This document shows positions 1-31,155 of a stretch of 38,652 bases of DNA, one piece after another (position 1 is the first letter of the stretch; each line of letters opens with the position of its first letter). A program made the translations under genes and the position numbers. Source of the DNA: a virus (Duplodnaviria; Heunggongvirae; Uroviricota; Caudoviricetes); the IMG/VR virus record IMGVR_UViG_2695420676_000011. One strand, given 5' to 3'. The notes beneath the pieces are model-generated. The model saw only the letters and a program-made list of their open reading frames with translations. It had not been told where the DNA came from and ran no database searches.

Positions 1-288
1 TCAATGGTTGGCGTCATTATCTTTTTCTCTTTCTGAACGTGAATATTGCGGTGGACGGTTCATCAGCTGTGGGGCAAGACGTTTTGCCACCTGAAGAATA
101 ACCACCACCGCAGCGGGAAGCATGAGCAAAACACCGAGAAAAATCATCAGAATCTGCACTTCTGGCCGAGAAAATGGCTCAGGCAGCGACAGGGAGTCGC
201 TTACCGACAGCAGCGCCACCGCCAGTAGCATCATTCCGATAAATTCCAGTATCAACACGCCTTTAGGCAATTTACCGATCGCGCGCAT
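1..288 (-). CDS. ybjC: Small inner-membrane protein YbjC (DUF1418 family)
   Basis: 95-aa hydrophobic ORF divergent from grxA, matching the conserved ybjC-grxA arrangement of Escherichia; stop codon at 1-3. Confidence 0.75.
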   Translation of the reverse strand: MRAIGKLPKGVLILEFIGMMLLAVALLSVSDSLSLPEPFSRPEVQILMIFLGVLLMLPAAVVVILQVAKRLAPQLMNRPPQYSRSEREKDNDANH

Positions 289-447
289 ACGCTTCCCTCT
301 GCAAAGTGAGCCTTCAGTCTAAAACTTTTCACTGTATTGTGTTTAACAGTTATAGCTTTTAGCAATTAATGCAACAGGTTAAACCTACTTTCAGCGAATA
401 CATTTTAGCGTGATCATTACAGGCATAAATCTATGAGGAGAGAAATA

Positions 448-705
448 ATGCAAACCGTTATTTTTGGTCGTTCGGGTTGCCCTTACTGTGTGCGTGCAAA
501 AGATCTGGCTGAGAAATTGAGCAATGAACGCGATGATTTTCAGTATCAGTATGTAGATATTCGTGCGGAAGGGATCACTAAAGAAGATCTACAACAAAAG
601 GCAGGTAAACCCGTAGAAACCGTGCCGCAGATTTTTGTCGATCAGCAACATATCGGCGGCTATACCGATTTTGCTGCATGGGTGAAAGAAAATCTGGACG
701 CCTGA
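448..705 (+). CDS. grxA: Glutaredoxin 1
   Basis: 85-aa product beginning MQTVIFGRSGCPYCVRAK with the CPYC redox motif; ATG at 448 preferred over the upstream in-frame start of the 433..705 ORF. Confidence 0.9.
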   Translation: MQTVIFGRSGCPYCVRAKDLAEKLSNERDDFQYQYVDIRAEGITKEDLQQKAGKPVETVPQIFVDQQHIGGYTDFAAWVKENLDA

Positions 706-714
706 TCGTCTGAC

Positions 715-747
715 AAGCCCTCGCGTTGAGGGCTTTACTGATTTTTT
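715..747 (+). terminator. Rho-independent terminator downstream of grxA, between convergent grxA and ybjM
   Basis: Hairpin aagccctc-gcgtt-gagggctt followed by a T-run (tactgattttttc). Confidence 0.6.
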
Positions 748-1112
748 CTGTGCTGTGGTTTAAACAAACTACTGATAAATAAGAAACACAGTGCCCCCAG
801 CGCACACCAGAACACCGCGCTTAGTAACCATGCCAGCTCTTGCCAGAATGAGCGCGTCGGTGAAAAAAACAGCCGCATAATGAGCATTGAACAGGGTGCC
901 GCCAGCATTGCGCCAAATAGAGGTTTCAGGACTTCTCTACGCTGTGAAAAGAAACTGGCAACTGCTCCAGGAAGAATGAAAAATAGCAAGCCGATTTCAG
1001 GATGCCCGGCAGCCCGAAAAGCGCCTTTCATGTGCGTCGCCAGAAAAAGGCACACCACAATGAAGAGGACAAAACAGCAGATTGCCCCCGCCCAACGTTG
1101 TTTATGTTTCAC
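735..1112 (-). CDS. ybjM: Inner membrane protein YbjM
   Basis: 125-aa multi-pass hydrophobic protein in the conserved position between grxA and ybjL. Confidence 0.75.
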   Translation of the reverse strand: MKHKQRWAGAICCFVLFIVVCLFLATHMKGAFRAAGHPEIGLLFFILPGAVASFFSQRREVLKPLFGAMLAAPCSMLIMRLFFSPTRSFWQELAWLLSAVFWCALGALCFLFISSLFKPQHRKNQ

Positions 1113-1381
1113 TCGTTCCTCCTGACACTGCGTCTATCGAACACATTTTTCGCCAGTGTGGCGTTCAGTAAGATAAAGCCGCTTCGCATTCCATGCTAAT
1201 ATAGGCCAACGCAATTCATATAGCCGTTGATACCTAATGTGATTACACTAGTAAAATATATTGTTACTTTACTATCGTTTAGGTGCGCTGAATGAATCTG
1301 CGCCCTGAATTCTGGTAAAAAACATTATCGTAAATTACCATTTCTTTCAACAGCTTACTAGTAAACAAGAAGTTAGCCTCC

Positions 1382-3067
1382 GTGAATATAAACGTCGCCG
1401 AATTGTTAAATGGGAATTACATTCTGTTATTATTTGTGGTCCTCGCGCTTGGGCTATGTCTCGGAAAGTTACGACTTGGTTCGATCCAACTGGGTAATTC
1501 CATTGGCGTTTTAGTCGTATCGCTGTTATTAGGCCAACAACATTTCAGCATTAACACCGATGCGCTTAATCTTGGCTTTATGCTGTTTATTTTCTGCGTC
1601 GGGGTCGAAGCCGGACCGAACTTTTTTTCCATTTTTTTTCGCGATGGGAAAAATTACCTAATGTTAGCACTGGTGATGGTTGGCAGTGCGCTGGTGATCG
1701 CCTTAGGGTTAGGTAAGCTGTTTGGCTGGGATATTGGCCTGACGGCCGGTATGTTAGCAGGCTCTATGACGTCGACACCGGTGCTGGTCGGTGCTGGCGA
1801 TACACTGCGTCATTTCGGCATGGAAAGCAGGCAGCTCTCACTGGCACTGGATAATCTGAGCCTCGGGTATGCCTTAACCTATTTAATCGGTCTGGTGAGT
1901 TTGATTGTTGGTGCGCGTTACTTGCCGAAATTGCAGCATCAGGACTTACAGACCAGCGCCCAGCAAATCGCCCGCGAACGTGGCCTGGACACTGATGCCA
2001 ACCGTAAGGTTTATTTACCGGTGATCCGCGCCTATCGCGTCGGCCCGGAGCTGGTGGCCTGGACCGACGGCAAAAATCTGCGTGAACTGGGTATTTATCG
2101 ACAAACCGGCTGCTACATTGAACGTATTCGACGTAACGGGATTCTGGCAAATCCAGACGGTGATGCCGTGCTACAAATGGGCGATGAAATAGCGTTGGTA
2201 GGCTATCCCGACGCCCATGCCCGACTCGATCCCAGCTTCCGTAACGGTAAAGAAGTTTTCGATCGTGACCTTCTCGACATGCGTATCGTCACTGAAGAAG
2301 TGGTCGTTAAAAACCATAACGCTGTAGGTAAACGTCTCGCACAACTGAAGTTGACCGATCACGGTTGCTTCCTTAACCGCGTCATTCGTAGCCAGATTGA
2401 GATGCCGATAGATGACAACGTCGTGCTTAACAAAGGTGACGTTTTACAAGTCAGCGGCGATGCCCGCCGCGTAAAAACCATCGCCGATCGCATCGGCTTT
2501 ATCTCGATTCACAGCCAGGTCACTGACCTGCTGGCATTCTGCGCCTTCTTTGTTATTGGGCTGATGATCGGGATGATCACCTTCCAGTTCAGCACATTCA
2601 GTTTCGGCATGGGGAACGCTGCCGGGTTGTTATTCGCCGGAATTATGCTGGGCTTTATGCGTGCTAACCACCCGACCTTCGGTTACATTCCGCAAGGTGC
2701 ATTAAGCATGGTGAAAGAGTTCGGCTTGATGGTGTTTATGGCAGGCGTTGGTCTGAGCGCCGGTAGCGGTATTAATAACGGCCTGGGCGCGATTGGCGGT
2801 CAGATGTTGATTGCCGGATTAATTGTCAGTCTTGTGCCCGTGGTTATCTGTTTCTTGTTCGGTGCTTATGTATTGCGAATGAACCGCGCACTATTGTTCG
2901 GCGCAATGATGGGCGCACGCACCTGCGCGCCGGCAATGGAGATCATCAGTGATACAGCTCGCAGTAACATCCCTGCGCTGGGCTATGCGGGCACCTACGC
3001 AATCGCCAACGTCCTGCTGACGCTGGCAGGGACAATCATCGTCATGGTATGGCCAGGATTAGGATAA
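1382..3067 (+). CDS. ybjL: Putative AAE-family transporter YbjL (two TrkA-C/RCK_C domains)
   Basis: 561-aa ORF with GTG start and N- and C-terminal membrane domains around a soluble core; length and N-terminus match YbjL. Confidence 0.85.
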
Positions 3068-3179
3068 AACTGAAGTTGCCCTGAAAATGAAATTTTTTTG
3101 CACAACCGCAGAACTTTTCCGCAGGGCATCAGTCTTAATTAGTGCCACTGCTTTTCTTTGATGTCCCCATTTTGTGGAG

Positions 3180-3611: not shown

Positions 3612-4712
3612 TCATTCCATTTCGAAATCATCAATCCTCACTTCAAGCTCCAGACTGGTTGTAAAACCGTTATCGGGGCTGACGGTATGCGTCAGAGTCG
3701 TAATGGTCCATTCCGCATCATCTATCGGTTGTTTAAAGCCACTAACTTTCACTGGCATTTCCGTGTAAAGATCTGCCCGCCCTTCCGCCAGTTGTAGCGA
3801 GAATGACGCAACGCCGCGTTGCAGGCGTTCCCACTGCATTTTCGCTGCCCGTTCAGCGTTGCTCCGGTTGGCATAAGTGCGATTAAGTACCAGCACGTTT
3901 TCATCCGTACCCACCAGGTAATCGCCCTGCTTCGCTTCCGGCTCTTTCTTCTGCTTCTTAGTTCTGCGCTTACGCTTCACCGTGGTGCTTTCTTTCTTCG
4001 CAGGTTCGCGGGTATGCAACCAGCTGGCAATTACGCCCGTGTAGGCTCCGCGATCTGCCAGGGTAAAGCGGTGACTGTCGCCGTCCTTGCGTGTGATAGT
4101 GATCACTGGCAGTGGTTTACCAGTGGCGCTTTTGCCCTGCCCCTGCCGGATGAATAACAGATTGCCATTTTTCACCGACGCGATGGCACCGTACTGTCGC
4201 GCCAGCCGCATCAGAAAACTACCGTCACTCTCATTAGTCTGGTCTATATGCTCCACGAGCTTATCCGACAGGTCTTTACCCAGTACCATCTTCAGCTTGT
4301 GCCGCGCGGCTATCTCCTTCACCACTTCCCCAATGGTGGTCTTGTGCCACGATTTTTCACGGCGGGTATTCAGCGTTTCCCGAAAATCAGCACTTCGCGC
4401 CCGGATAGTCAGGCGGTCCGGTGCGCCAGTGTGTTCAATCTCGTCCACCGTGAATGCCCCTTTCGGGAAAAGCGGCTGCCCCTTCCAGCCCAGCGCCAGC
4501 GTAATGACCGCACCACGGCGCGGCAGCACGATTTTCCCGTCGGCATCGTCCAGCTCCAGATCAAGCTGGTCTGCTTCAAAGCCCCGATTGTCCGTCAGAG
4601 TCAGACTCATCAGGCGGTTATCCAGCACAGTGGTGATATCCCTACCCTCAATACTGATGCTGAATGCCGGAGTTTTGTTGCTTTTGTTAAGCAGTTCAGA
4701 GCTGAAATTCAC
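3612..4712 (-). CDS. D: Tail protein gpD (late control gene D)
   Basis: 366-aa product in the P2 gpD position with recalled gpD-like sequence; 4-bp overlap with upstream U. Confidence 0.85.
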   Translation of the reverse strand: MNFSSELLNKSNKTPAFSISIEGRDITTVLDNRLMSLTLTDNRGFEADQLDLELDDADGKIVLPRRGAVITLALGWKGQPLFPKGAFTVDEIEHTGAPDRLTIRARSADFRETLNTRREKSWHKTTIGEVVKEIAARHKLKMVLGKDLSDKLVEHIDQTNESDGSFLMRLARQYGAIASVKNGNLLFIRQGQGKSATGKPLPVITITRKDGDSHRFTLADRGAYTGVIASWLHTREPAKKESTTVKRKRRTKKQKKEPEAKQGDYLVGTDENVLVLNRTYANRSNAERAAKMQWERLQRGVASFSLQLAEGRADLYTEMPVKVSGFKQPIDDAEWTITTLTHTVSPDNGFTTSLELEVRIDDFEME

Positions 4713-24208: not shown

Positions 24209-25245
24209 TGGGAAAGCGTAAGAAAAACCGCGCAGCGGCGATGAATCAGATCCAGCATAAAAGCCAGACTTCAGCCGAAGCATTCAGCTTCGGCGATCCC
24301 GTTCCTGTTCTGGACCGCCGCGAATTACTGGACTATGTGGAATGCGTACAGATGGACCGCTGGTATGAGCCACCAGTGAGTTTCGACGGACTGGCGCGAA
24401 CCTTCCGCGCCGCCGTGCATCATAGCTCACCGATTGCGGTGAAATGCAACATTCTGACCAGCACCTACATCCCTCACCCGCTGCTCAGCCAGCAGGCTTT
24501 TTCACGTTTTGTGCAGGACTATCTGGTATTTGGTAACGCCTACCTGGAGAAACGCACGAACCGGTTCGGTGAAATTATCGCCCTTGAGCCTGCGCTGGCA
24601 AAATACACCCGACGCGGGTTAGACCTGGATACCTACTGGTTTGTGCAATACGGTATGACAACCCAGCCGTATCAGTTCACGAAAGGCAGCATCTTTCATC
24701 TGATGGAACCCGATATCAACCAGGAGATCTACGGCCTGCCCGGCTATCTTTCTGCCATTCCGTCAGCCCTGCTCAACGAGTCCGCCACGCTGTTCCGACG
24801 CAAATATTATATTAATGGCAGCCATGCAGGATTCATAATGTACATGACCGATGCCGCTCAGAACCAGGAGGATGTGAACAACCTCCGCAACGCGATGAAA
24901 AGCGCCAAAGGTCCGGGCAACTTCCGCAACCTGTTTATGTACTCGCCTAACGGCAAAAAGGACGGGCTTCAGATCATCCCGCTGTCAGAAGTGGCGGCAA
25001 AGGATGAGTTTCTGAACATCAAGAACGTAAGCCGGGACGACATGATGGCGGCGCATCGTGTGCCGCCGCAAATGATGGGGATTATGCCGAATAATGTTGG
25101 GGGGTTTGGGGATGTGGAGAAGGCAAGCCGTGTATTCGTCCGAAATGAGCTAATGCCACTACAAAAGCGATTACAGGAGATGAATGATTGGCTTGGCAAG
25201 GAGGCGATACAGTTTAATACCTACTCGCTAGATATAGTCCCATAA
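24205..25245 (+). CDS. Q: Portal protein gpQ
   Basis: 346-aa ORF with 4-bp overlap with P. Confidence 0.9.
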   Translation: MMGKRKKNRAAAMNQIQHKSQTSAEAFSFGDPVPVLDRRELLDYVECVQMDRWYEPPVSFDGLARTFRAAVHHSSPIAVKCNILTSTYIPHPLLSQQAFSRFVQDYLVFGNAYLEKRTNRFGEIIALEPALAKYTRRGLDLDTYWFVQYGMTTQPYQFTKGSIFHLMEPDINQEIYGLPGYLSAIPSALLNESATLFRRKYYINGSHAGFIMYMTDAAQNQEDVNNLRNAMKSAKGPGNFRNLFMYSPNGKKDGLQIIPLSEVAAKDEFLNIKNVSRDDMMAAHRVPPQMMGIMPNNVGGFGDVEKASRVFVRNELMPLQKRLQEMNDWLGKEAIQFNTYSLDIVP

Positions 25246-25249
25246 TAAG

Positions 25250-25273
25250 AAAAGCCACCGTTTGGTGGCTTTT
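25250..25273. terminator. Bidirectional rho-independent terminator between Q and the HIRAN-domain gene
   Basis: aaaagccacc-gttt-ggtggctttt: GC stem flanked by A-run and T-run, between convergent genes. Confidence 0.6.
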
Positions 25274-25279
25274 CTTCAT

Positions 25280-26020
25280 TTACTCAATAGGTTCAAACTC
25301 ATCCTGAGGAATCAGCGTCGATTGACAGGCTTGGCTTAGTACTCCTGATAATTTACATAATAACCGATAGTTATGAGGAGCATCATCGCTAATCTTTTCG
25401 ACCGTTAAAGTGATTGATTTTGGATCATCCAATAACATCTTCTTGATATCATTACTTAAATACCTAGGGCAGTAACCAACGATTTCAGCTGGTTTATCTG
25501 CACGAACGACAACAGCATCCCCATCGTATTCATTTTGAAGATCCAAGCAAAGACGCAAAATTTGCCCCGGTTTCAATTCAGATACACGAGCATTAGCTAA
25601 GCTATTTAAGTAACCAAGTCCATGTAAGAAGAAAAAATGCTCAAAGTTACCATCAGAATCAACATCAATTTTTTTGAAAATCTGCAGCTGATCAGTGCTT
25701 CGTAAGCCTCCCGAGCGAGCAAGAATATCGATAGGATTTACCTTATCTTCTTCAAATCCAAGCCATTTAATGAAACTCGGATACTCTGGACGTCTCGGTG
25801 ATAAAAGGCGATTTTTAAAAAGAGGAAACAATTCTTCCGAAACATAAGTTTCACGAACATCACTCATGCCGCTAAACTTTGTAAATTTAGTAGATTTGAG
25901 AGCACCTTTGGTATACCTGAAAACATACCCCGATTTGCGCTCTTGCAAGTTACCAACAACATGCCAGTCTCTGGTATCTGGTGCCTGCCATGCGACGTAA
26001 ACGGAGTTTGTATTAGTCAT
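25280..26020 (-). CDS. HIRAN-domain protein, putative partner of the HipA-like kinase
   Basis: 246-aa ORF overlapping the upstream kinase gene by 4 bp; C-terminal ~100 aa resemble a HIRAN domain (ILRLCLDLQNEYDGDAVVVRAD...EIVGYCPRYLSNDIKKML); AT-rich. Confidence 0.55.
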   Translation of the reverse strand: MTNTNSVYVAWQAPDTRDWHVVGNLQERKSGYVFRYTKGALKSTKFTKFSGMSDVRETYVSEELFPLFKNRLLSPRRPEYPSFIKWLGFEEDKVNPIDILARSGGLRSTDQLQIFKKIDVDSDGNFEHFFFLHGLGYLNSLANARVSELKPGQILRLCLDLQNEYDGDAVVVRADKPAEIVGYCPRYLSNDIKKMLLDDPKSITLTVEKISDDAPHNYRLLCKLSGVLSQACQSTLIPQDEFEPIE

Positions 26021-26931
26021 TCTAGTAACCTTCTGCGATTTTCCATTACCATTAACGTTGCAAATCTACGTGCGCTGTCGGATATACACGATGAAGGCAC
26101 TTGGTTAAACACATCTGTAATGGAATCTTCTGTTAAAACGCTCAACTTACCTAACCAATGGTCGCGAGCGGCAACTCTCCCTTCAACTGCATGTTGAAAT
26201 GCTTCAACGGTCAGCAAGGGCTTTTTATCAGTTTTTGCTTTGAATAGCTCAGAGCGAGCTTTTCTTACAAAACATGGGATTTGTCGATTTTTATCTTTAG
26301 TATTAAGCCGTTCGTTACGCTCATCATCTAACATCTCCCTTCCTAAACTAGCGGCATGATCGTATGTTGGACACAAAAACTGCTCACCAGTTTCATTGTT
26401 AAGCATGATCGCCCAATTTTCATGATGGCGATCTTGATTACTCACAAGTGCATCGAGCATCAAATATCCACAAAATACATCTGCTGCATTTAGCCCGGTT
26501 AGATCATATACACTCGGAGGAGGCTTGATAGATTCCCTATCTAAACAACCCAATACCCTTGTGACAGTGTGTTCTCTGACCCTTACCGGCTTTTCCCCGG
26601 CTTGTAAAGGCCCAGGATAATCGAATGTCGAACTGTGAAGCACTTCATTTCCCATTACCATCCGGAAACCAGATGGAATGATATTCTGAGTCACCACACC
26701 GAATCGACCATTGTATCGCGCCAAATCATAGCTAGCATGTGGAATGTTAAGCAAATGACATAACTCAGCAGCACACTTTTCAGACCAATGCTCGCCAGTA
26801 CCTGGCCTAGAGTACTTAAACAACTGCAAATTTACAGTGTCATCGGAGAAATAGAACCAAAACTTCTCTTTGGTTCCTAACTGTTCAAGATCGTTAGCTA
26901 CGGGGCTAAGCTCTACCAATTGGTATGGCAT
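26017..26931 (-). CDS. HipA-like serine/threonine kinase (kinase core only)
   Basis: 304-aa product with a HipA-type catalytic loop VSNQDRHHENWAI and downstream CPTYDHAASLG; AT-rich; first gene of a two-gene operon. Confidence 0.6.
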   Translation of the reverse strand: MPYQLVELSPVANDLEQLGTKEKFWFYFSDDTVNLQLFKYSRPGTGEHWSEKCAAELCHLLNIPHASYDLARYNGRFGVVTQNIIPSGFRMVMGNEVLHSSTFDYPGPLQAGEKPVRVREHTVTRVLGCLDRESIKPPPSVYDLTGLNAADVFCGYLMLDALVSNQDRHHENWAIMLNNETGEQFLCPTYDHAASLGREMLDDERNERLNTKDKNRQIPCFVRKARSELFKAKTDKKPLLTVEAFQHAVEGRVAARDHWLGKLSVLTEDSITDVFNQVPSSCISDSARRFATLMVMENRRRLLE

Positions 26932-27083
26932 CTGACATCCCTGTTTAGCGGATTATGAATAAGTTAGGTTCCATTTTATCCAAACATTGTCAAATACTCT
27001 AAGATTTATTAGATGATAGAGCGATACTGTATGCATGTCCAGCAATCAAATCAATATATAACTCTTATATGACTTAGCGCGCG

Positions 27084-27102
27084 CTCGTATCCCCGCCACG
27101 CC
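27084..27102 (-). other. Candidate cos (cohesive-end) site of the prophage
   Basis: Minus strand reads GGCGTGGCGGGGATACGAG; the first 13 nt match the P2/186 cohesive end as I recall it; isolated GC-rich island in an AT-rich intergenic region in the expected Q-to-A interval. Confidence 0.3.
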
Positions 27103-27526
27103 TGCCCGCTTTATGTAGTGGTTTTCATGCACCTGCATGACATAAGCAAAAGCACGCCAGTTCTGGCTGACTTCAGCAAAAACGATCCTCAAACGATCAT
27201 GCGATCTCATGCGTCATAGTCATGCGCTGCCAAGGGAAGCGTAAATCCGTATCTGAATGACTGCTGAAAAGCGAATCATACGGGTTTACAAAGATGAAAG
27301 TTCGCTGTGAGCGAGAAGCGAACCTTGCAACTTTGTTGGCACAGTTTTAACACCAATTTTTTGAGGATAGCTAGAAAACTTGTGGCATAAAGGATCAGTT
27401 TCCCGATCGAACTTTTTATCAAGAAGGGCTCATAGCAATCGCCAGAAGAAGTGATGTTAAAGTATTGAGCTCGGCGTTAAGATTAAATAAATTACAGACT
27501 AATCCAATGTTTTGTGGAAGGATAAG

Positions 27527-28570
27527 ATGGCAGTCAAGCGCGCATACTACGGTAACGATAGTGACCGAGACTACTTAGAGCGGATATTTCAGTCAGCTAA
27601 CATTAACTTTCTCATCGGATCAGGTGCATCCCTCCCAGCGATTAAAGTACTGGGGACAATCGAAACGGATCTTCAGCAGCTTATTAATGATGAACAGGAA
27701 GATGAATACTTAAGGATGGCAGCTGACTTTTTGTCAGATGTTTGGCTACCTCATGAATGCATGTTGAAGCGCGGCTACGGCACCCCCTTCGCACCTCAGG
27801 TGATCACCGATTTGGAATGTACCCGTGCAAATTATGATGCATTTATGTCTTCACTGGAAAAGATACTGACCCGCCGCCGAACTGGCCTACTTCCGAGGCG
27901 TATTAACGTTTTTACAACTAATTATGATTTATTCATCGAAGAAGCTGCCACACGTAATAACAATATTCTTTTTAATGATGGATTCAATAGAAGAGCAAGT
28001 ATTTTGGGAGATGCGGAATTTGATGCGGGTAGCTTTAATCATTCTGTAAGTGCAACCGGAAATCTGTATAATTATAAAGTTGAGCTTCCTACTGTTAACC
28101 TTATAAAACTTCATGGTTCGCTCTCTTGGCAGCATTCTAAAGGGAAAATCATTTATCGTATTGCAGATATTAAGCCGCTTGACTTTCCCACCCTAGCCGA
28201 AATGAAAGGATGGGTACTTGCTCATGCACTTATTCTTCCACGTAAGGAGAAGTTTAAAGAGACTCTACTACAGAACGTTTATTATGATTTACTGAGAACC
28301 TATTCCAACGAGCTTGATAAAGAAGCAACTTTACTAATTGTCTTTGGGTTCTCGTTTGCTGATGAGCACATTGAAACGATAACTAAAAAAGCCCTGCGCA
28401 ACGCCACCCTGAAGCTACTGATCTTTGCTTTCGATGAGGCCAGTGTTAACGGCTTTATGGAGAAATTTCGGGATTACTCAAACGTAGAGATTATTTATCG
28501 GCCGGGAAGAAATGTTGATTTTCCGGTAATGAATAACATTATCACGTGCTATCTGGGAGGCTCGAGATGA
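27527..28570 (+). CDS. SIR2-family NADase of a SIR2-HerA anti-phage system
   Basis: SIR2-like motifs NFLIGSGAS, TTNYD and KLHGS; ATG at 27527 with RBS (ORF track start 27512 is TTG); stop overlaps the HerA start (ATGA). Confidence 0.8.
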   Translation: MAVKRAYYGNDSDRDYLERIFQSANINFLIGSGASLPAIKVLGTIETDLQQLINDEQEDEYLRMAADFLSDVWLPHECMLKRGYGTPFAPQVITDLECTRANYDAFMSSLEKILTRRRTGLLPRRINVFTTNYDLFIEEAATRNNNILFNDGFNRRASILGDAEFDAGSFNHSVSATGNLYNYKVELPTVNLIKLHGSLSWQHSKGKIIYRIADIKPLDFPTLAEMKGWVLAHALILPRKEKFKETLLQNVYYDLLRTYSNELDKEATLLIVFGFSFADEHIETITKKALRNATLKLLIFAFDEASVNGFMEKFRDYSNVEIIYRPGRNVDFPVMNNIITCYLGGSR

Positions 28571-30426
28571 GCAGGCATTTTACTGAAGAGGAAGCGGTGC
28601 TCCGTATAGGCGAAGTCTGTGAGGTTTCTGGACGCGCTGTGACAATTTTGGTCGATAAAAACAAAAATCTCAGTGACTTGTTTTATCAGGGAAAAGTTCT
28701 AAGAAATGTATCAGTGGGTAGCTTCATTGAGATCAAAAAAGGTTTCATGAGCCTGATCGGCAAGGTTGAAGCGGAACGAATCATTGAGGAAAAACATCTC
28801 GCTGGGAGCGGCAGTGATGCCTGGCGATATCGGCGATACCTGACCTCTACTCTTACGGGTTACATTGATCGTACTGGTTGCTTCATTGGTGGTTCGCGTG
28901 AACTACCTCTCATCGGCAATGAAGTCTTCGTGGTAACTGAAGAGATGATACAAACGGTTCATCAGATAGCTAATGCAGACGAAACTGTAATGAGGTTTAC
29001 TCGTACAGATCTTGAAGATATTGAAATTGCACTACCAATCAATGGTCTTATTAATTCCCACATTGCCATTTTCGGTAATACAGGCAGCGGAAAGTCAAAT
29101 ACCCTAGCCGCGCTATACAAAGCAGGTATTGCCCAAGTTAAACATATTCTCGGCAACCACTTTAGTGAAAGATGCAAATTTATTCTATTCGACTTTAATG
29201 GAGAATATACTGCCCCACGCTGTATTACTGACGAGAAGACGGTTTATAATCTCAACACGCACCATGCAAATGGTGACAAACTTCCTCTACCCAGAGAGGT
29301 TCTACTTGAGCATGATATGCTCTCAGTTCTAACCGATGCAACAGACAAAACACAGAAACCTTTCCTGAAGAGAGTTCTTGAGTTTCGCAAGAAAGTGATG
29401 ACTGCTGATAATCCTCTTGAGTTTATGCGCAATATCCTGAAGAAAAAAGTCAGACAAAATCTCTTTAGTAGCGACAAACCCAAATGCGATACTATAAATC
29501 AGTTTCTTAGCCCAATTTTCAAAGATGACCCAGAACTTATATCTGATCTTGAGTATCATTCAACTGCATATAAATGGAAATTGAGGGGTGGTAGTATTTT
29601 CAATACAGAAGCTGATACTGAGCGCTCCTATCTATTCAGTCTTGCAAGCAATTTTTTATTTAAAACTGATATGATTGAAGAACTGTTGGACTTTATGTAC
29701 TTACAGTTAATACAGGAATATTTATCTAACAAGTCTAACCCTGAACATATTTCACCAGTTATAAATAGAATGAGTGCTAACCGTAAAGATATAGCCAAAA
29801 TATTTGATACTTCCGGACAGTCTGACTTTTGGGGTGAACATAATTTCACGGTTGTGAATCTAAATATGGTTAATATAACCATGAAAAAAACGCTTCCTCT
29901 TTTGATAGCCAAGTGGGCTTACAATATGAAGAAAATGTCTACAGAGAAATCTACACTGCACATCATTATAGATGAAGCCCACAATATTTTGTCTAATACT
30001 TCTTTTCGGGAAACGGAAAGTTGGAGAGATTATCGTCTGGAAACTTTTGAGGAAATCATAAAGGAGGGGAGAAAATTTGGAGTTTTTATCACAATTTCCA
30101 GTCAACGCCCTAATGATATATCGTCGACAATCATATCCCAAGCACACAATTATTTTATTCATCGCCTTATTAATCAGAATGATCTGTACGCAATTGAAAA
30201 ATCAGTATCATATATAGATCGACTGACTGAAGAGTCGATTCCAACGCTATCTACAGGAACCTGTATTTTTAGTGGTATCGTCTGCCCCATGCCGCTCAAA
30301 TTAAGGGTAGCTGAACTTCCAATTGAAGAAAAACCTAAGAGTAATACTATTTCCTTCAACGATTTAATACCTGAGAGGCTGGGAGAGGATGACCAGAGCG
30401 ACTACGTAATAACCAGCCCTCACTAA
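28567..30426 (+). CDS. HerA-like (FtsK/HerA superfamily) ATPase of a SIR2-HerA anti-phage system
   Basis: Walker A IAIFGNTGSGKSNT and Walker B LHIIIDEAHN; GGGAGG RBS; translationally coupled to the SIR2 gene. Confidence 0.85.
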   Translation: MSRHFTEEEAVLRIGEVCEVSGRAVTILVDKNKNLSDLFYQGKVLRNVSVGSFIEIKKGFMSLIGKVEAERIIEEKHLAGSGSDAWRYRRYLTSTLTGYIDRTGCFIGGSRELPLIGNEVFVVTEEMIQTVHQIANADETVMRFTRTDLEDIEIALPINGLINSHIAIFGNTGSGKSNTLAALYKAGIAQVKHILGNHFSERCKFILFDFNGEYTAPRCITDEKTVYNLNTHHANGDKLPLPREVLLEHDMLSVLTDATDKTQKPFLKRVLEFRKKVMTADNPLEFMRNILKKKVRQNLFSSDKPKCDTINQFLSPIFKDDPELISDLEYHSTAYKWKLRGGSIFNTEADTERSYLFSLASNFLFKTDMIEELLDFMYLQLIQEYLSNKSNPEHISPVINRMSANRKDIAKIFDTSGQSDFWGEHNFTVVNLNMVNITMKKTLPLLIAKWAYNMKKMSTEKSTLHIIIDEAHNILSNTSFRETESWRDYRLETFEEIIKEGRKFGVFITISSQRPNDISSTIISQAHNYFIHRLINQNDLYAIEKSVSYIDRLTEESIPTLSTGTCIFSGIVCPMPLKLRVAELPIEEKPKSNTISFNDLIPERLGEDDQSDYVITSPH

Positions 30427-30570
30427 TTAACAAAGTGCTGAAGCGGTAACGACCGCTTCTAGCACAAAGCGGACGATCACTTATCAAAATGCCCGCCCAC
30501 CTTACGCCTCGTTTCACTCGTTGCCCAAACTAGCCCCCATCAGAATGAATCCTCCTGGAGGCAACGTTTC

Positions 30571-30804
30571 TTAATGCAGCCAGCTGTCGTCTTCCCACAC
30601 TTTCTGCATAATTTTCATCACTTGTTTTCTTTCTTCATCCAGTTGCAGTCCGGTCAGTTCCACACCGTTAGAGCTACCTTTGCGGATACGAATTACCGTT
30701 TTGGGATACAGGGGGCGCAGATTGCGGTAAAGCTCGGATTCAAGGGCGTCCAGGGTAGACTGGCTAATCTTCTGCTCTTTATCGATCATTATTTCAATGC
30801 GCAT
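30571..30804 (-). CDS. DinI-family protein
   Basis: 77-aa product MRIEIMIDK...VWEDDSWLH resembling DinI; GAGGTGA RBS; second gene of a LexA-box-preceded operon. Confidence 0.7.
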   Translation of the reverse strand: MRIEIMIDKEQKISQSTLDALESELYRNLRPLYPKTVIRIRKGSSNGVELTGLQLDEERKQVMKIMQKVWEDDSWLH

Positions 30805-30814
30805 AAAAGTCACC

Positions 30815-31003
30815 TCAACTGATGACATCCATTGAGCGGTTGTATTCGTGGGTTCTGATTTTTGCCATGAGTTCATCAGTCAATTCAGAAACCCACTGCA
30901 GAGCCAGCCCCTTCTCTTCATCACTACACTCACTAGCCGCTACAAGCTTAAGAAAAAAATCAATGCGCTGGAGCTTCAAAGACTCCAAAAAATAGTCCTG
31001 CAT
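30815..31003 (-). CDS. Small SOS-regulated protein of unknown function (position of the 186 tum operon)
   Basis: 62-aa ORF directly downstream of a consensus LexA box and upstream of the DinI-like gene. Confidence 0.45.
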   Translation of the reverse strand: MQDYFLESLKLQRIDFFLKLVAASECSDEEKGLALQWVSELTDELMAKIRTHEYNRSMDVIS

Positions 31004-31044
31004 CTTTCCTCCTATGACACCAAAGCGATACTGTATACATAACC

Positions 31045-31062
31045 ACTGTTTATATTTACAGT
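31045..31062. promoter_or_regulatory. LexA operator (SOS box)
   Basis: aCTGTttatatttACAGt: CTGT-N8-ACAG with an all-A/T spacer, about 40-60 bp upstream of the 62-aa ORF. Confidence 0.7.
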
Positions 31063-31155
31063 ATATAATAATCTTACTGATGTAAAACGTTTTTTTACGT
31101 TCATCAGCCAGAAATGCCTGGTATTATTAAGAGCACGAATTGTTAACCCGCGTAA

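Follow-up and report, generated by a model that had tools for sequence, protein, structure and literature searches.

What do the two genes between the portal gene Q and the cos-like site of a P2-like prophage encode, and what role might they play there? The locus lies in a 38,652-nt stretch of Caudoviricetes DNA (IMG/VR record IMGVR_UViG_2695420676_000011; the whole stretch is called the window below), in which Q ends at position 25245 and the two-gene cassette stands between Q and the cos-like site. In P2, cosL occupies positions 1-19 and Q positions 187-1221, with only a terminator (tQ) in between. The initial annotation had described the two genes as an undescribed module of a HipA-like kinase and a HIRAN-domain protein. 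Both ORFs were present exactly at the coordinates that it gave, with the 4-nt overlap that it reported (ATGA), and its remark that P2 has no gene between cos and Q was correct.

Results

Genomic context of the cassette

The features of the locus are collected in Table 1. The cos-equivalent site was located by alignment of the junction, within a 59-nt block of 78% identity to the P2 cos junction; a search with the P2 cos 19-mer that allowed at most 3 mismatches gave no match, the site itself having 5 mismatches. The end of Q and this site together confirm the placement of the cassette between Q and a putative cos, and no third gene is present between them in the ORF list of the window. The GC content is 0.40-0.43 over positions 25001-27000 versus 0.52-0.63 in the phage structural genes, which agrees with the AT-richness ascribed to both genes and marks the cassette as foreign to the backbone.

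Table 1 Features of the two-gene cassette and its surroundings (positions in the window)
Feature	Position	Strand	Remarks
Kinase gene	26017..26931	minus	304 aa; ORF call with PADLOC, Pfam and Foldseek matches
Partner gene	25280..26020	minus	246 aa; ORF call with PADLOC match
HipS-like domain of partner	25664..26020	minus	aa 1-119; HipA N-subdomain-1 / Couple_hipA fold
HIRAN domain of partner	25337..25642	minus	aa 127-228
ATGA overlap of kinase stop and partner start	26017..26020	minus	4 nt
Sigma-70-like promoter match	27013..27041	minus	TGGACA-17-TATCAT, 10/12; consensus match only
Perfect 13-bp hairpin	25247..25276		Between the convergent stops of Q and the partner gene
cos-equivalent	27084-27102		14/19 matches to P2 cosL

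The gpA-gpQ hotspot of P2 prophages holds anti-phage systems (Rousset 2022), and the idea that the genes occupy a prophage cargo slot therefore fits a known cargo and defence hotspot. The cassette adjoins genes that PADLOC identified as SIR2+HerA. A single four-gene system made of SIR2+HerA and the kinase pair was considered and rejected, since both occur together in 1 of 57 related loci; other carriers have a KAP NTPase, DarTG or small unknown genes at the SIR2+HerA place.

The upstream gene encodes a HipA-type kinase core

The two kinase motifs singled out at the outset were found at aa 163-175 (VSNQDRHHENWAI) and aa 187-197 (CPTYDHAASLG). The catalytic motif D167-x4-N172 and the Mg-binding Asp D191 are invariant among 20 homologues, as is a Gly-rich loop (LGTKEK, aa 18-23), and the catalytic residues D155 and D179 of CtkA align to D167 and D191. 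The Pfam HipA_C model is matched by 20 of 20 family members, although the kinase of the window scores 20.7 bits, under the gathering score of 30.5 bits. NCBIfam holds no model for the kinase or the partner. Since HMMER searches of the PDB with both proteins, by single sequence and by profile, did not reach HipA, HipT, HipS or HLTF and returned CtkA weakly, lp_0118 weakly and crystallins by chance, a comparison of folds was needed.

The AF2 model of the kinase (pLDDT 83, pTM 0.86) was compared with the PDB by Foldseek, which matched CtkA (E=1.5e-9), HipA (about 1e-5) and HipT (4e-4). CtkA is the closest solved structure (TM 0.62-0.72), and the model is ~110-135 aa shorter than the matched HipA chains. 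By sequence and predicted fold, the product of gene 1 is a HipI-like Ser/Thr kinase core of the HipA superfamily, with its catalytic residues intact and without the HipA N-terminal lid, as the initial annotation had proposed.

The downstream gene encodes a HipS-like domain fused to HIRAN

Relatives of the partner form 318 clusters at 50% identity (E<=1e-30), and the best 150 of these 318 are mostly about 230-270 aa long with most of the profile covered. When the partner and 23 homologues were searched against Pfam, only HIRAN and Couple_hipA were matched, apart from chance matches. The score of the partner is above the gathering threshold of HIRAN (PF08797) and the HIRAN fold is present, so the C-terminal HIRAN domain recognized at first stands; it takes up ~45% of the protein at its C-terminal end, more than the third first estimated. 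The HipS-like domain at the N terminus, which corresponds to HipA N-subdomain-1, had been missed. Judged from these matches and the AF2 model (pLDDT 88, pTM 0.84), gene 2 is the missing HipA lid, a HipS-like domain, fused to HIRAN, and HipA is thus split in two.

The HIRAN half was aligned by hhalign with HLTF (E=4e-4, 46 columns), the HLTF query being an approximate sequence. With this approximate query, partner residues Q162, N163, Y165, D166 and R186 align to HLTF N90/N91, Y93, D94 and K113, and all of them are invariant among partner homologues except Y165 (Y or H). The N-terminal RYY motif and F142 of HLTF lie outside the 46-column aligned block. With the roles of the 3'-end-pocket residues taken from the HLTF literature, the HIRAN half retains residues aligned to the 3'-OH pocket, and DNA-end binding is predicted.

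The two genes are inherited together and move between elements

Database homologues number 955 for the kinase and 535 for the partner, with mean column identities across genera of 69% and 67%, so both are genuine genes rather than chance ORFs. The partner lies directly downstream of the kinase in all 56 evaluable IMG/VR loci, and the stop/start overlap (4, 8, 11 or 14 nt) is kept in 55 of these 56 viral loci, even at identities as low as 42%. The pair is inherited as one unit, and the early view of the ORFs as a single module holds. The ATGA arrangement suggests translational coupling.

The same gene pair was found in Vibrio, Ectopseudomonas, Shewanella, Serratia and a second E. coli lineage. 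Among 5,426 complete E. coli genomes the cassette is present in 21, while flanking Q or cos sequence was matched in 1,287. In all 21 copies the alignment spans the full 1,652 nt with at least 98.9% identity, and the annotation gives two protein-coding genes; decay into pseudogenes was rejected on these grounds. The Q-proximal slot is kept in 35 P2-like loci, even with Q at only 62% identity. Beyond these, a lambdoid Serratia prophage, a Vibrio prophage that is not P2-like, non-phage islands and bare chromosome also carry the pair. Some copies, such as the one in V. cholerae, stand by themselves amid housekeeping genes and lack defence neighbours; another adjoins the toxin-antitoxin genes FitA/PIN on an island with an integrase. 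Horizontal transfer has placed the cassette in cargo slots of several prophages and islands unrelated to one another. No close copy is present in GenBank phage records, the only match being 84 nt at 77% identity in Vibrio 'PE' elements.

Expression signals

The only sigma-70-like promoter match in the region lies in the interval that separates cos from the kinase gene, ~80 nt ahead of the kinase start codon, and is a putative cassette promoter by its match to the consensus. Within positions 26932-27080 no operator-like inverted repeat was found; of the one pair touching this interval, the other arm falls within the kinase gene. At the opposite end, the hairpin between Q and the partner gene has a folding energy of -21 kcal/mol (z=-5.9), and 0 of 200 shuffles were as stable. 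The terminator tQ of P2 sits at the equivalent place, and the hairpin is probably a bidirectional terminator that replaces it. The cassette is oriented opposite to the late operon. A putative promoter and terminator of its own, opposed orientation and low GC are typical of cargo expressed in the lysogen.

The cassette corresponds to predicted modules

The cassette is not undescribed; it had already been predicted as a toxin-antitoxin or anti-phage module. The hipIN family, consisting of the kinase HipI and HipN, was established on the basis of just 14 modules (Gerdes, Baerentsen & Brodersen 2021, mBio, PMC8262856). HipI, a subclade of main clade XI, is a core kinase of 279-321 aa without N-subdomain-1 and with a Gly-rich loop near the N terminus (PMC8262856), and the cassette kinase is alike in its length, its N-terminal Gly-rich loop and its lack of N-subdomain-1. 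The cassette thus fits hipIN, with placement in the HipI clade made by architecture only. DNA-end-triggered abortive infection was proposed for hipIN by its authors (PMC8262856), so this idea was not new either when it was raised for the present locus. The initial annotation was also right that HIRAN partners appear in surveys of HipA homologues but had not been characterized functionally, as in Gerdes 2021, and no functional test of any hipIN module was found in the literature searched.

The cassette also matches PDC-M03 of PADLOC-DB v2, in which A is HipA-like and B is HIRAN: PDC-M03A matches the kinase over aa 2-304 (E=2.1e-122) and PDC-M03B the partner over aa 1-244 (E=3.4e-93), nearly end to end and with the genes adjacent. 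PDC stands for 'phage defence candidate', and PDC-M03 is a computational prediction; a 2026 genome paper reads it as HipA + HIRAN proteins. The exact proteins of the cassette, WP_001146828 and WP_000185757, are in Table S5 of Rousset 2022 for the P2 hotspot, and these accessions were not found in the supplementary text of Gerdes 2021.

Comparison with other Hip-type systems

Canonical HipBA of E. coli K-12 (type II) shares with the cassette the kinase superfamily, the DxxxxN motif and the downstream Mg-binding D. It has the HTH antitoxin HipB upstream and a HipA of ~440 aa with N-subdomain-1, whereas the cassette has no HTH antitoxin and a shorter kinase. HipBST of E. coli O127 is tricistronic (hipB-hipS-hipT) with a free-standing HipS of ~100 aa; the cassette is bicistronic, lacks a HipB gene, has the kinase first (the reverse order) and carries its HipS-like domain fused to HIRAN. 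Profiles do not reach HipS or HipT in the PDB, the sequence similarity being too low, and the cassette kinase is structurally nearer to CtkA than to HipT. CtkA (JHP0940) of Helicobacter pylori, described as cell-translocating, is a stand-alone Ser/Thr kinase and, unlike the cassette kinase, has no HipS or HIRAN partner. Its PDB entry is titled 'proinflammatory kinase'.

In HipL kinases and in the pFR108 system 'Exonuclease + HipA', the kinase, HipS-like and HIRAN domains are in one polypeptide, whereas they are split in the cassette. This fusion of all three domains gives Rosetta-stone support that the parts work together. The fused forms are often joined by a DEDD exonuclease gene; searches of the window and of 80 fetched loci for a homologue of the pFR108 enzyme gave no match. 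pFR108 comes from an E. coli P2 hotspot, the same hotspot that holds the cassette, and was cloned by Rousset 2022; it is absent from the three additional P2 systems that showed defence there. Since the pFR108 kinase is only 37% identical to that of the cassette over 51 aa (the HipS-like part, 34% over 29 aa), this result is weak evidence against a defence role.

The best functional precedent is HipAD/DS-6 of E. coli (Brenes & Laub 2025; DefensePredictor 2026, PMC13092281), which like the cassette combines a HipA-family kinase with a non-HipB partner. Its phage defence requires the kinase catalytic residue (PMC13092281). The HipAD partner has DUF3037 and DUF1829, neither of which is matched by the cassette partner.

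Discussion

We propose that the cassette is a hipIN-type kinase toxin with its regulator, carried as cargo of a P2-like prophage and, by analogy with characterized Hip systems, most likely acting as an abortive-infection or toxin-antitoxin-like anti-phage system, a reading to which we give a probability of about 0.5. HipS neutralizes HipT, HipT targets TrpS and HipA targets GltX (PMC8262856). As HipS does on HipT in HipBST, the HipS-like domain would bind the kinase and keep it inactive. Infection would produce free DNA 3' ends on incoming or replicating phage DNA, or as short DNA breakdown products, and their capture by HIRAN would lift the restraint on the kinase. The freed kinase might then phosphorylate an essential host factor, an aminoacyl-tRNA synthetase by analogy with HipA and HipT, and translation would halt before the phage cycle is completed.

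For the defence reading we counted the kinase fold and active site, the HipS-like and HIRAN partner, the obligate pairing, the defence context, the PDC-M03 match, the lysogen-type signals, the precedents of HipS/HipT, HipA and HipAD, and the independent proposal of Gerdes 2021. Isolated copies among housekeeping genes without defence neighbours, as in V. cholerae, were counted against it. The HipS-like domain need not be inhibitory, because HipA's own N-subdomain belongs to the active enzyme. The particular sensor that would trigger defence is a tentative proposal of low probability, namely that HIRAN senses free DNA 3'-OH ends or short deoxy-oligonucleotides and that this signal is turned into phosphorylation by releasing or activating the split HipA kinase. 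In the three-gene relatives, a linked deoxydinucleotide-specific DEDD nuclease would clear the signal, by analogy with the ring nucleases of type III CRISPR. More remotely, the substrate of the kinase might be the captured DNA end itself, or proteins attached to that end, instead of a tRNA synthetase.

The roles of the two partner domains could also be assigned differently. HIRAN of HLTF and Rad5 acts in recruitment, and the partner could be a targeting or activating subunit, its HipS-like domain supplying N-subdomain-1 in trans and its HIRAN domain bringing the kinase to DNA 3' ends, where end- or fork-bound proteins (of phage replication, recombination or packaging, or host repair factors) would be the targets. 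A kinase gene placed first with the partner coupled behind it favours equimolar assembly, and the HipL and pFR108 proteins carry the three domains in one chain, but the only characterized free-standing HipS inhibits its kinase, and the targets of characterized Hip kinases are soluble aminoacyl-tRNA synthetases, not proteins bound to DNA; we regard such a subunit as possible but unlikely. It is rather improbable, in our judgement, that the cassette works as a plain toxin-antitoxin for addiction or persistence that stabilizes a prophage or island, with HIRAN in place of HipB as autoregulator and without phage sensing. Its authors classed hipIN among toxin-antitoxin modules with DNA-binding proteins as putative antitoxins (Gerdes 2021, PMC8262856), some copies are isolated two-gene islets like classical toxin-antitoxins, and the copy beside FitA/PIN points the same way. 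HIRAN domains, however, recognize DNA ends and not specific operators (PMC8262856), no operator-like repeat was found within positions 26932-27080, and the cassette has landed repeatedly in prophage cargo slots and defence hotspots and was chosen as a phage-defence candidate by the PADLOC authors.

Proximity to cos raises the further thought that the cassette serves the P2-like phage's own cycle, acting on cohesive ends, packaging, host takeover or interference with P4-type satellites through the shared cos. The cohesive ends of P2 have 5' overhangs and their 3'-OH ends are therefore recessed, HIRAN binds 3' ends, the cassette lies 153 nt from the cos-equivalent, and the Q-proximal slot persists in P2-like loci with diverged Q. 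Against this, the same pair resides in prophages unrelated to P2, in islands and in bare chromosome, and its GC content is foreign to the backbone. Its presence in so few of the E. coli genomes with flanking Q/cos sequence indicates that P2-like phages can dispense with it, and we consider a role in the phage's own cycle very improbable.

Characterized Hip kinases are known mainly as persistence toxins (PMC8262856), and HipAD is so far the only HipA-family system shown to defend against phage (PMC13092281). The cassette couples such a kinase to a domain whose ligand, the DNA 3' end, is simple and defined. It consists of two genes, in E. coli and in a well-studied type of phage, and with this defined HIRAN ligand it lends itself to studying how infection is sensed by a toxin kinase. 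If the end-sensor proposal were true, the cassette would represent the first alarm in bacterial immunity that couples DNA ends to a kinase. With its mechanism inferred, we rate the cassette a good experimental candidate of moderate novelty. The locus also reveals a second cargo slot of P2-like prophages, on the Q side of cos, filled independently of the old/tin slot opposite.

Organization of the kinase–HIRAN cassette

Both minus-strand genes of the cassette, a short HipA-type kinase and its partner, were found exactly where the initial annotation had placed them, and the coordinates of these and associated features are listed in the table. The stop codon of the kinase gene shares the four nucleotides ATGA with the start codon of the partner gene, which is convergent with the portal gene Q (end at 25245). 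The AT-richness remarked on earlier was also seen, with a GC content of 0.40–0.43 over 25001–27000 versus 0.52–0.63 for the adjoining structural genes. The promoter match and the hairpin, as read from the DNA, are likely the cassette's own signals.

Features of the cassette and of the region around the cos-equivalent site
Feature	Position	Strand	Details
Kinase gene	26017–26931	-	304-aa ORF
Partner gene	25280–26020	-	246-aa ORF
Sigma-70-like promoter match, TGGACA-17-TATCAT	about 80 nt upstream of kinase start codon		sole such match in the region
Perfect 13-bp hairpin	3' of partner stop codon, before convergent Q		dG -21 kcal/mol, z = -5.9
cos-equivalent	27084–27102		14 of 19 positions match P2 cosL; inside a 59-nt block
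Q-side slot	25246–27083		empty in P2; kinase pair in the window
gpA-side slot	27103–31155		classical old/tin slot
SIR2 (352 aa) and HerA (626 aa) genes	27512–30426	+	25-nt overlap; PADLOC models

Domain analysis of the two proteins

At the sequence level alone, the kinase bears only a weak resemblance to HipA: it scored 20.7 bits against Pfam HipA_C, below the gathering score of 30.5 bits, a search of NCBIfam returned no model for it, and CtkA was the sole PDB protein reached by the family profile. The remaining evidence is clear-cut: HipA_C was matched by all 20 aligned kinase homologues (best E = 3.4e-8), and the AlphaFold model, which is of high confidence (pLDDT 83, pTM 0.86), matched the folds of H. 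pylori CtkA (E = 1.5e-9, TM 0.62–0.72), E. coli and Shewanella HipA (about 1e-5) and Legionella HipT, in that order. In the alignment, the catalytic D155 and the Mg-binding D179 of CtkA correspond to D167 and D191, which are invariant in the family together with N172, K39 and the loop near the N terminus, L18-G19-T20-K21-E22-K23; the motifs quoted in the initial annotation are present at aa 163–175 and 187–197. The homologue matches, the fold matches and the invariant residues identify the protein as a HipA-superfamily kinase core that lacks the N-terminal lid.

The partner is composed of two domains, one HipS-like and one HIRAN. The domain calls made at first sight, a HipA-like kinase and a HIRAN domain, were right; an important feature, the HipS-like domain, had been overlooked. 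In HLTF, the pocket that holds the 3'-OH end of DNA is lined by residues N91, Y93, D94 and K113. A profile-to-sequence alignment matched N163, Y165, D166 and R186 of the partner to these four residues, respectively (E = 4e-4; HLTF numbering agrees with the published residues), and the family keeps D160, Q162, N163, D166 and R186 unchanged. Taken as a pair, the genes encode HipA in split form, with the detached lid joined to a putative DNA-end-binding domain.

Pairing and distribution of the cassette

The kinase and its partner are one unit. The partner lies directly downstream in 56 of the 57 IMG/VR loci with a kinase relative, the lone exception being cut off by a contig end, and the kinase stop and partner start overlap by 4, 8, 11 or 14 nt in 55 of these 56 loci, down to 42% protein identity. 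The same adjacency was observed in V. cholerae, Ectopseudomonas, Shewanella, Serratia, V. parahaemolyticus and a second E. coli lineage. When the partner profile was searched exhaustively with HMMER, 318 clusters (50% identity) reached E ≤ 1e-30 and 1,009 reached E ≤ 1e-10; among the 150 best-scoring clusters, the majority are about 230–270 aa long and match over most of the profile.

The cassette is rare, being present in 21 of 5,426 complete E. coli genomes (all full length, at least 98.9% identity), whereas 1,287 genomes gave a match to at least part of the Q or cos flank. Among 50,697 GenBank phage records, the sole cassette DNA matches were 84-nt stretches of 77% identity; these come from 'PE' records of Vibrio cyclitrophicus, about 14.6 kb in length (PQ189286, PQ189287 and PQ189331). 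The pair is also cargo of a lambdoid prophage in Serratia, where the NinG region lies on one side and the lysis genes on the other, of a Vibrio prophage of a different, non-P2-like type, where it adjoins head genes whose portal and F-protein domains are Mu-type, and of resolvase or integrase islands. In V. cholerae it stands alone as a two-gene islet. In the second E. coli lineage (81 index blocks; kinase 71% identical to that of the window), an AlpA/DUF3987 (P4-like) island carries the pair beside a two-partner-secretion/contact-dependent inhibition locus (contigs L006–L010, 8001–9663).

Relationship to known systems

The pair had been put forward as an undescribed system, which did not hold. 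The hipIN modules were defined (Gerdes 2021, PMC8262856) by a short kinase, HipI, with HipN (a HipS-like domain plus HIRAN) after it, the pair is catalogued in PADLOC-DB as candidate PDC-M03, and Table S5 of Rousset 2022 contains these very accessions, labelled 'hypothetical + HIRAN'. By its architecture, the cassette is a member of an already named, computationally predicted family. Rousset 2022 established the gpA-gpQ region as a hotspot of defence, and its Table S6 has an entry 'HIRAN-kinase' for a hotspot in a Vibrio prophage; a distantly related fused version was cloned there with a DEDD exonuclease (pFR108), which is not included in the three additional P2 systems giving defence. No study on the function of a HipA-HIRAN pair turned up in full-text literature searches. 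DS-6/HipAD is a different HipA-family pair, whose partner carries DUF3037 and DUF1829; it is a validated, kinase-dependent defence system (PMC13092281). We consider the cassette a sound target for experiments, of moderate interest.

In E. coli P2 hotspots and in Actinobacteria, the HipA and HIRAN genes of some relatives are joined by an adjacent third gene for a DEDD exonuclease, which is either DUF5051 or a 'diDNase' specific for deoxydinucleotides (Rousset 2022 Tables S2 and S5; PMC11706625). For the deoxydinucleotide-specific DEDD nucleases beside HipA and HIRAN genes in Actinobacteria, the link was left open (2025, PMC11706625). This neighborhood hints that the ligand may be short DNA fragments. 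No homologue of the pFR108 exonuclease was found in the window or the 80 fetched loci.

Possible mechanism of the kinase pair

Based on protein anatomy and analogy, from which all three steps are drawn, the best-supported reading (probability about 0.5) is that the HipS-like domain would hold the kinase back, as HipS does HipT, that HIRAN would capture free DNA 3' ends arising in infection and so relieve the restraint, and that the kinase would then phosphorylate an essential factor and arrest translation, by analogy with HipA-GltX and HipT-TrpS. Gerdes 2021 likewise suggested that HIRAN recognises invading or replicating phage DNA ends, leading to kinase activation and abortive infection, an idea that 'can now be tested experimentally' (PMC8262856).

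Since the equivalent subdomain belongs to the active enzyme in intact HipA, the main alternative is that the partner might instead complete the kinase and target it to DNA ends without inhibiting it, which we regard as rather unlikely. A simple toxin-antitoxin pair of the addiction type, in which HIRAN would substitute for HipB, would suit the isolated chromosomal copies but fits poorly with HIRAN's lack of sequence specificity, and an operator search of the cassette promoter region found none, making this reading improbable. That the pair serves the carrier phage's own cos biology is very improbable, because it is rare among P2-like prophages and occurs in elements unrelated to P2.

Cargo slots flanking the cos site

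The cos-equivalent 19-mer (minus strand, GGCGTGGCGGGGATACGAG) was missed by a 3-mismatch search because it differs from P2 cosL at 5 positions; the 59-nt block around it (27076–27134) shares 78% identity with the P2 cos junction. In phage P2, 167 nt separate cosL from Q and hold the terminator tQ only, so that the cassette adds about 1.7 kb to a slot that P2 leaves empty. The pair adjoins a convergent P2-type Q in 35 viral loci, even at 62–65% Q identity.

On the gpA side of cos, the window carries what its sequence identifies as the known SIR2+HerA anti-phage system (PADLOC E = 6e-211 and 7e-267), which is independent of the kinase pair, since both occur together in only 1 of 57 related loci. 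Other carriers have a KAP NTPase and IS903B (strain CT29), small unknown genes (A41 and EC361) or DarT and Macro genes (DarTG; a Rousset-listed contig) at this side. Given these varied genes among carriers of one kinase pair, two separately filled cargo slots appear to flank cos in P2-like prophages. The IS903B transposase of CT29 (contig L070, 8554–9522) lies just past cos, between the kinase pair and the KAP-family NTPase gene.

At the left end of the window, positions 1–3100 look like host chromosome rather than prophage on the basis of ORF sequence alone, with a glutaredoxin-like ORF (433–705) and a 561-aa membrane transporter-like ORF (1382–3067), and ORF 3612–4712 is read as the putative first prophage gene.
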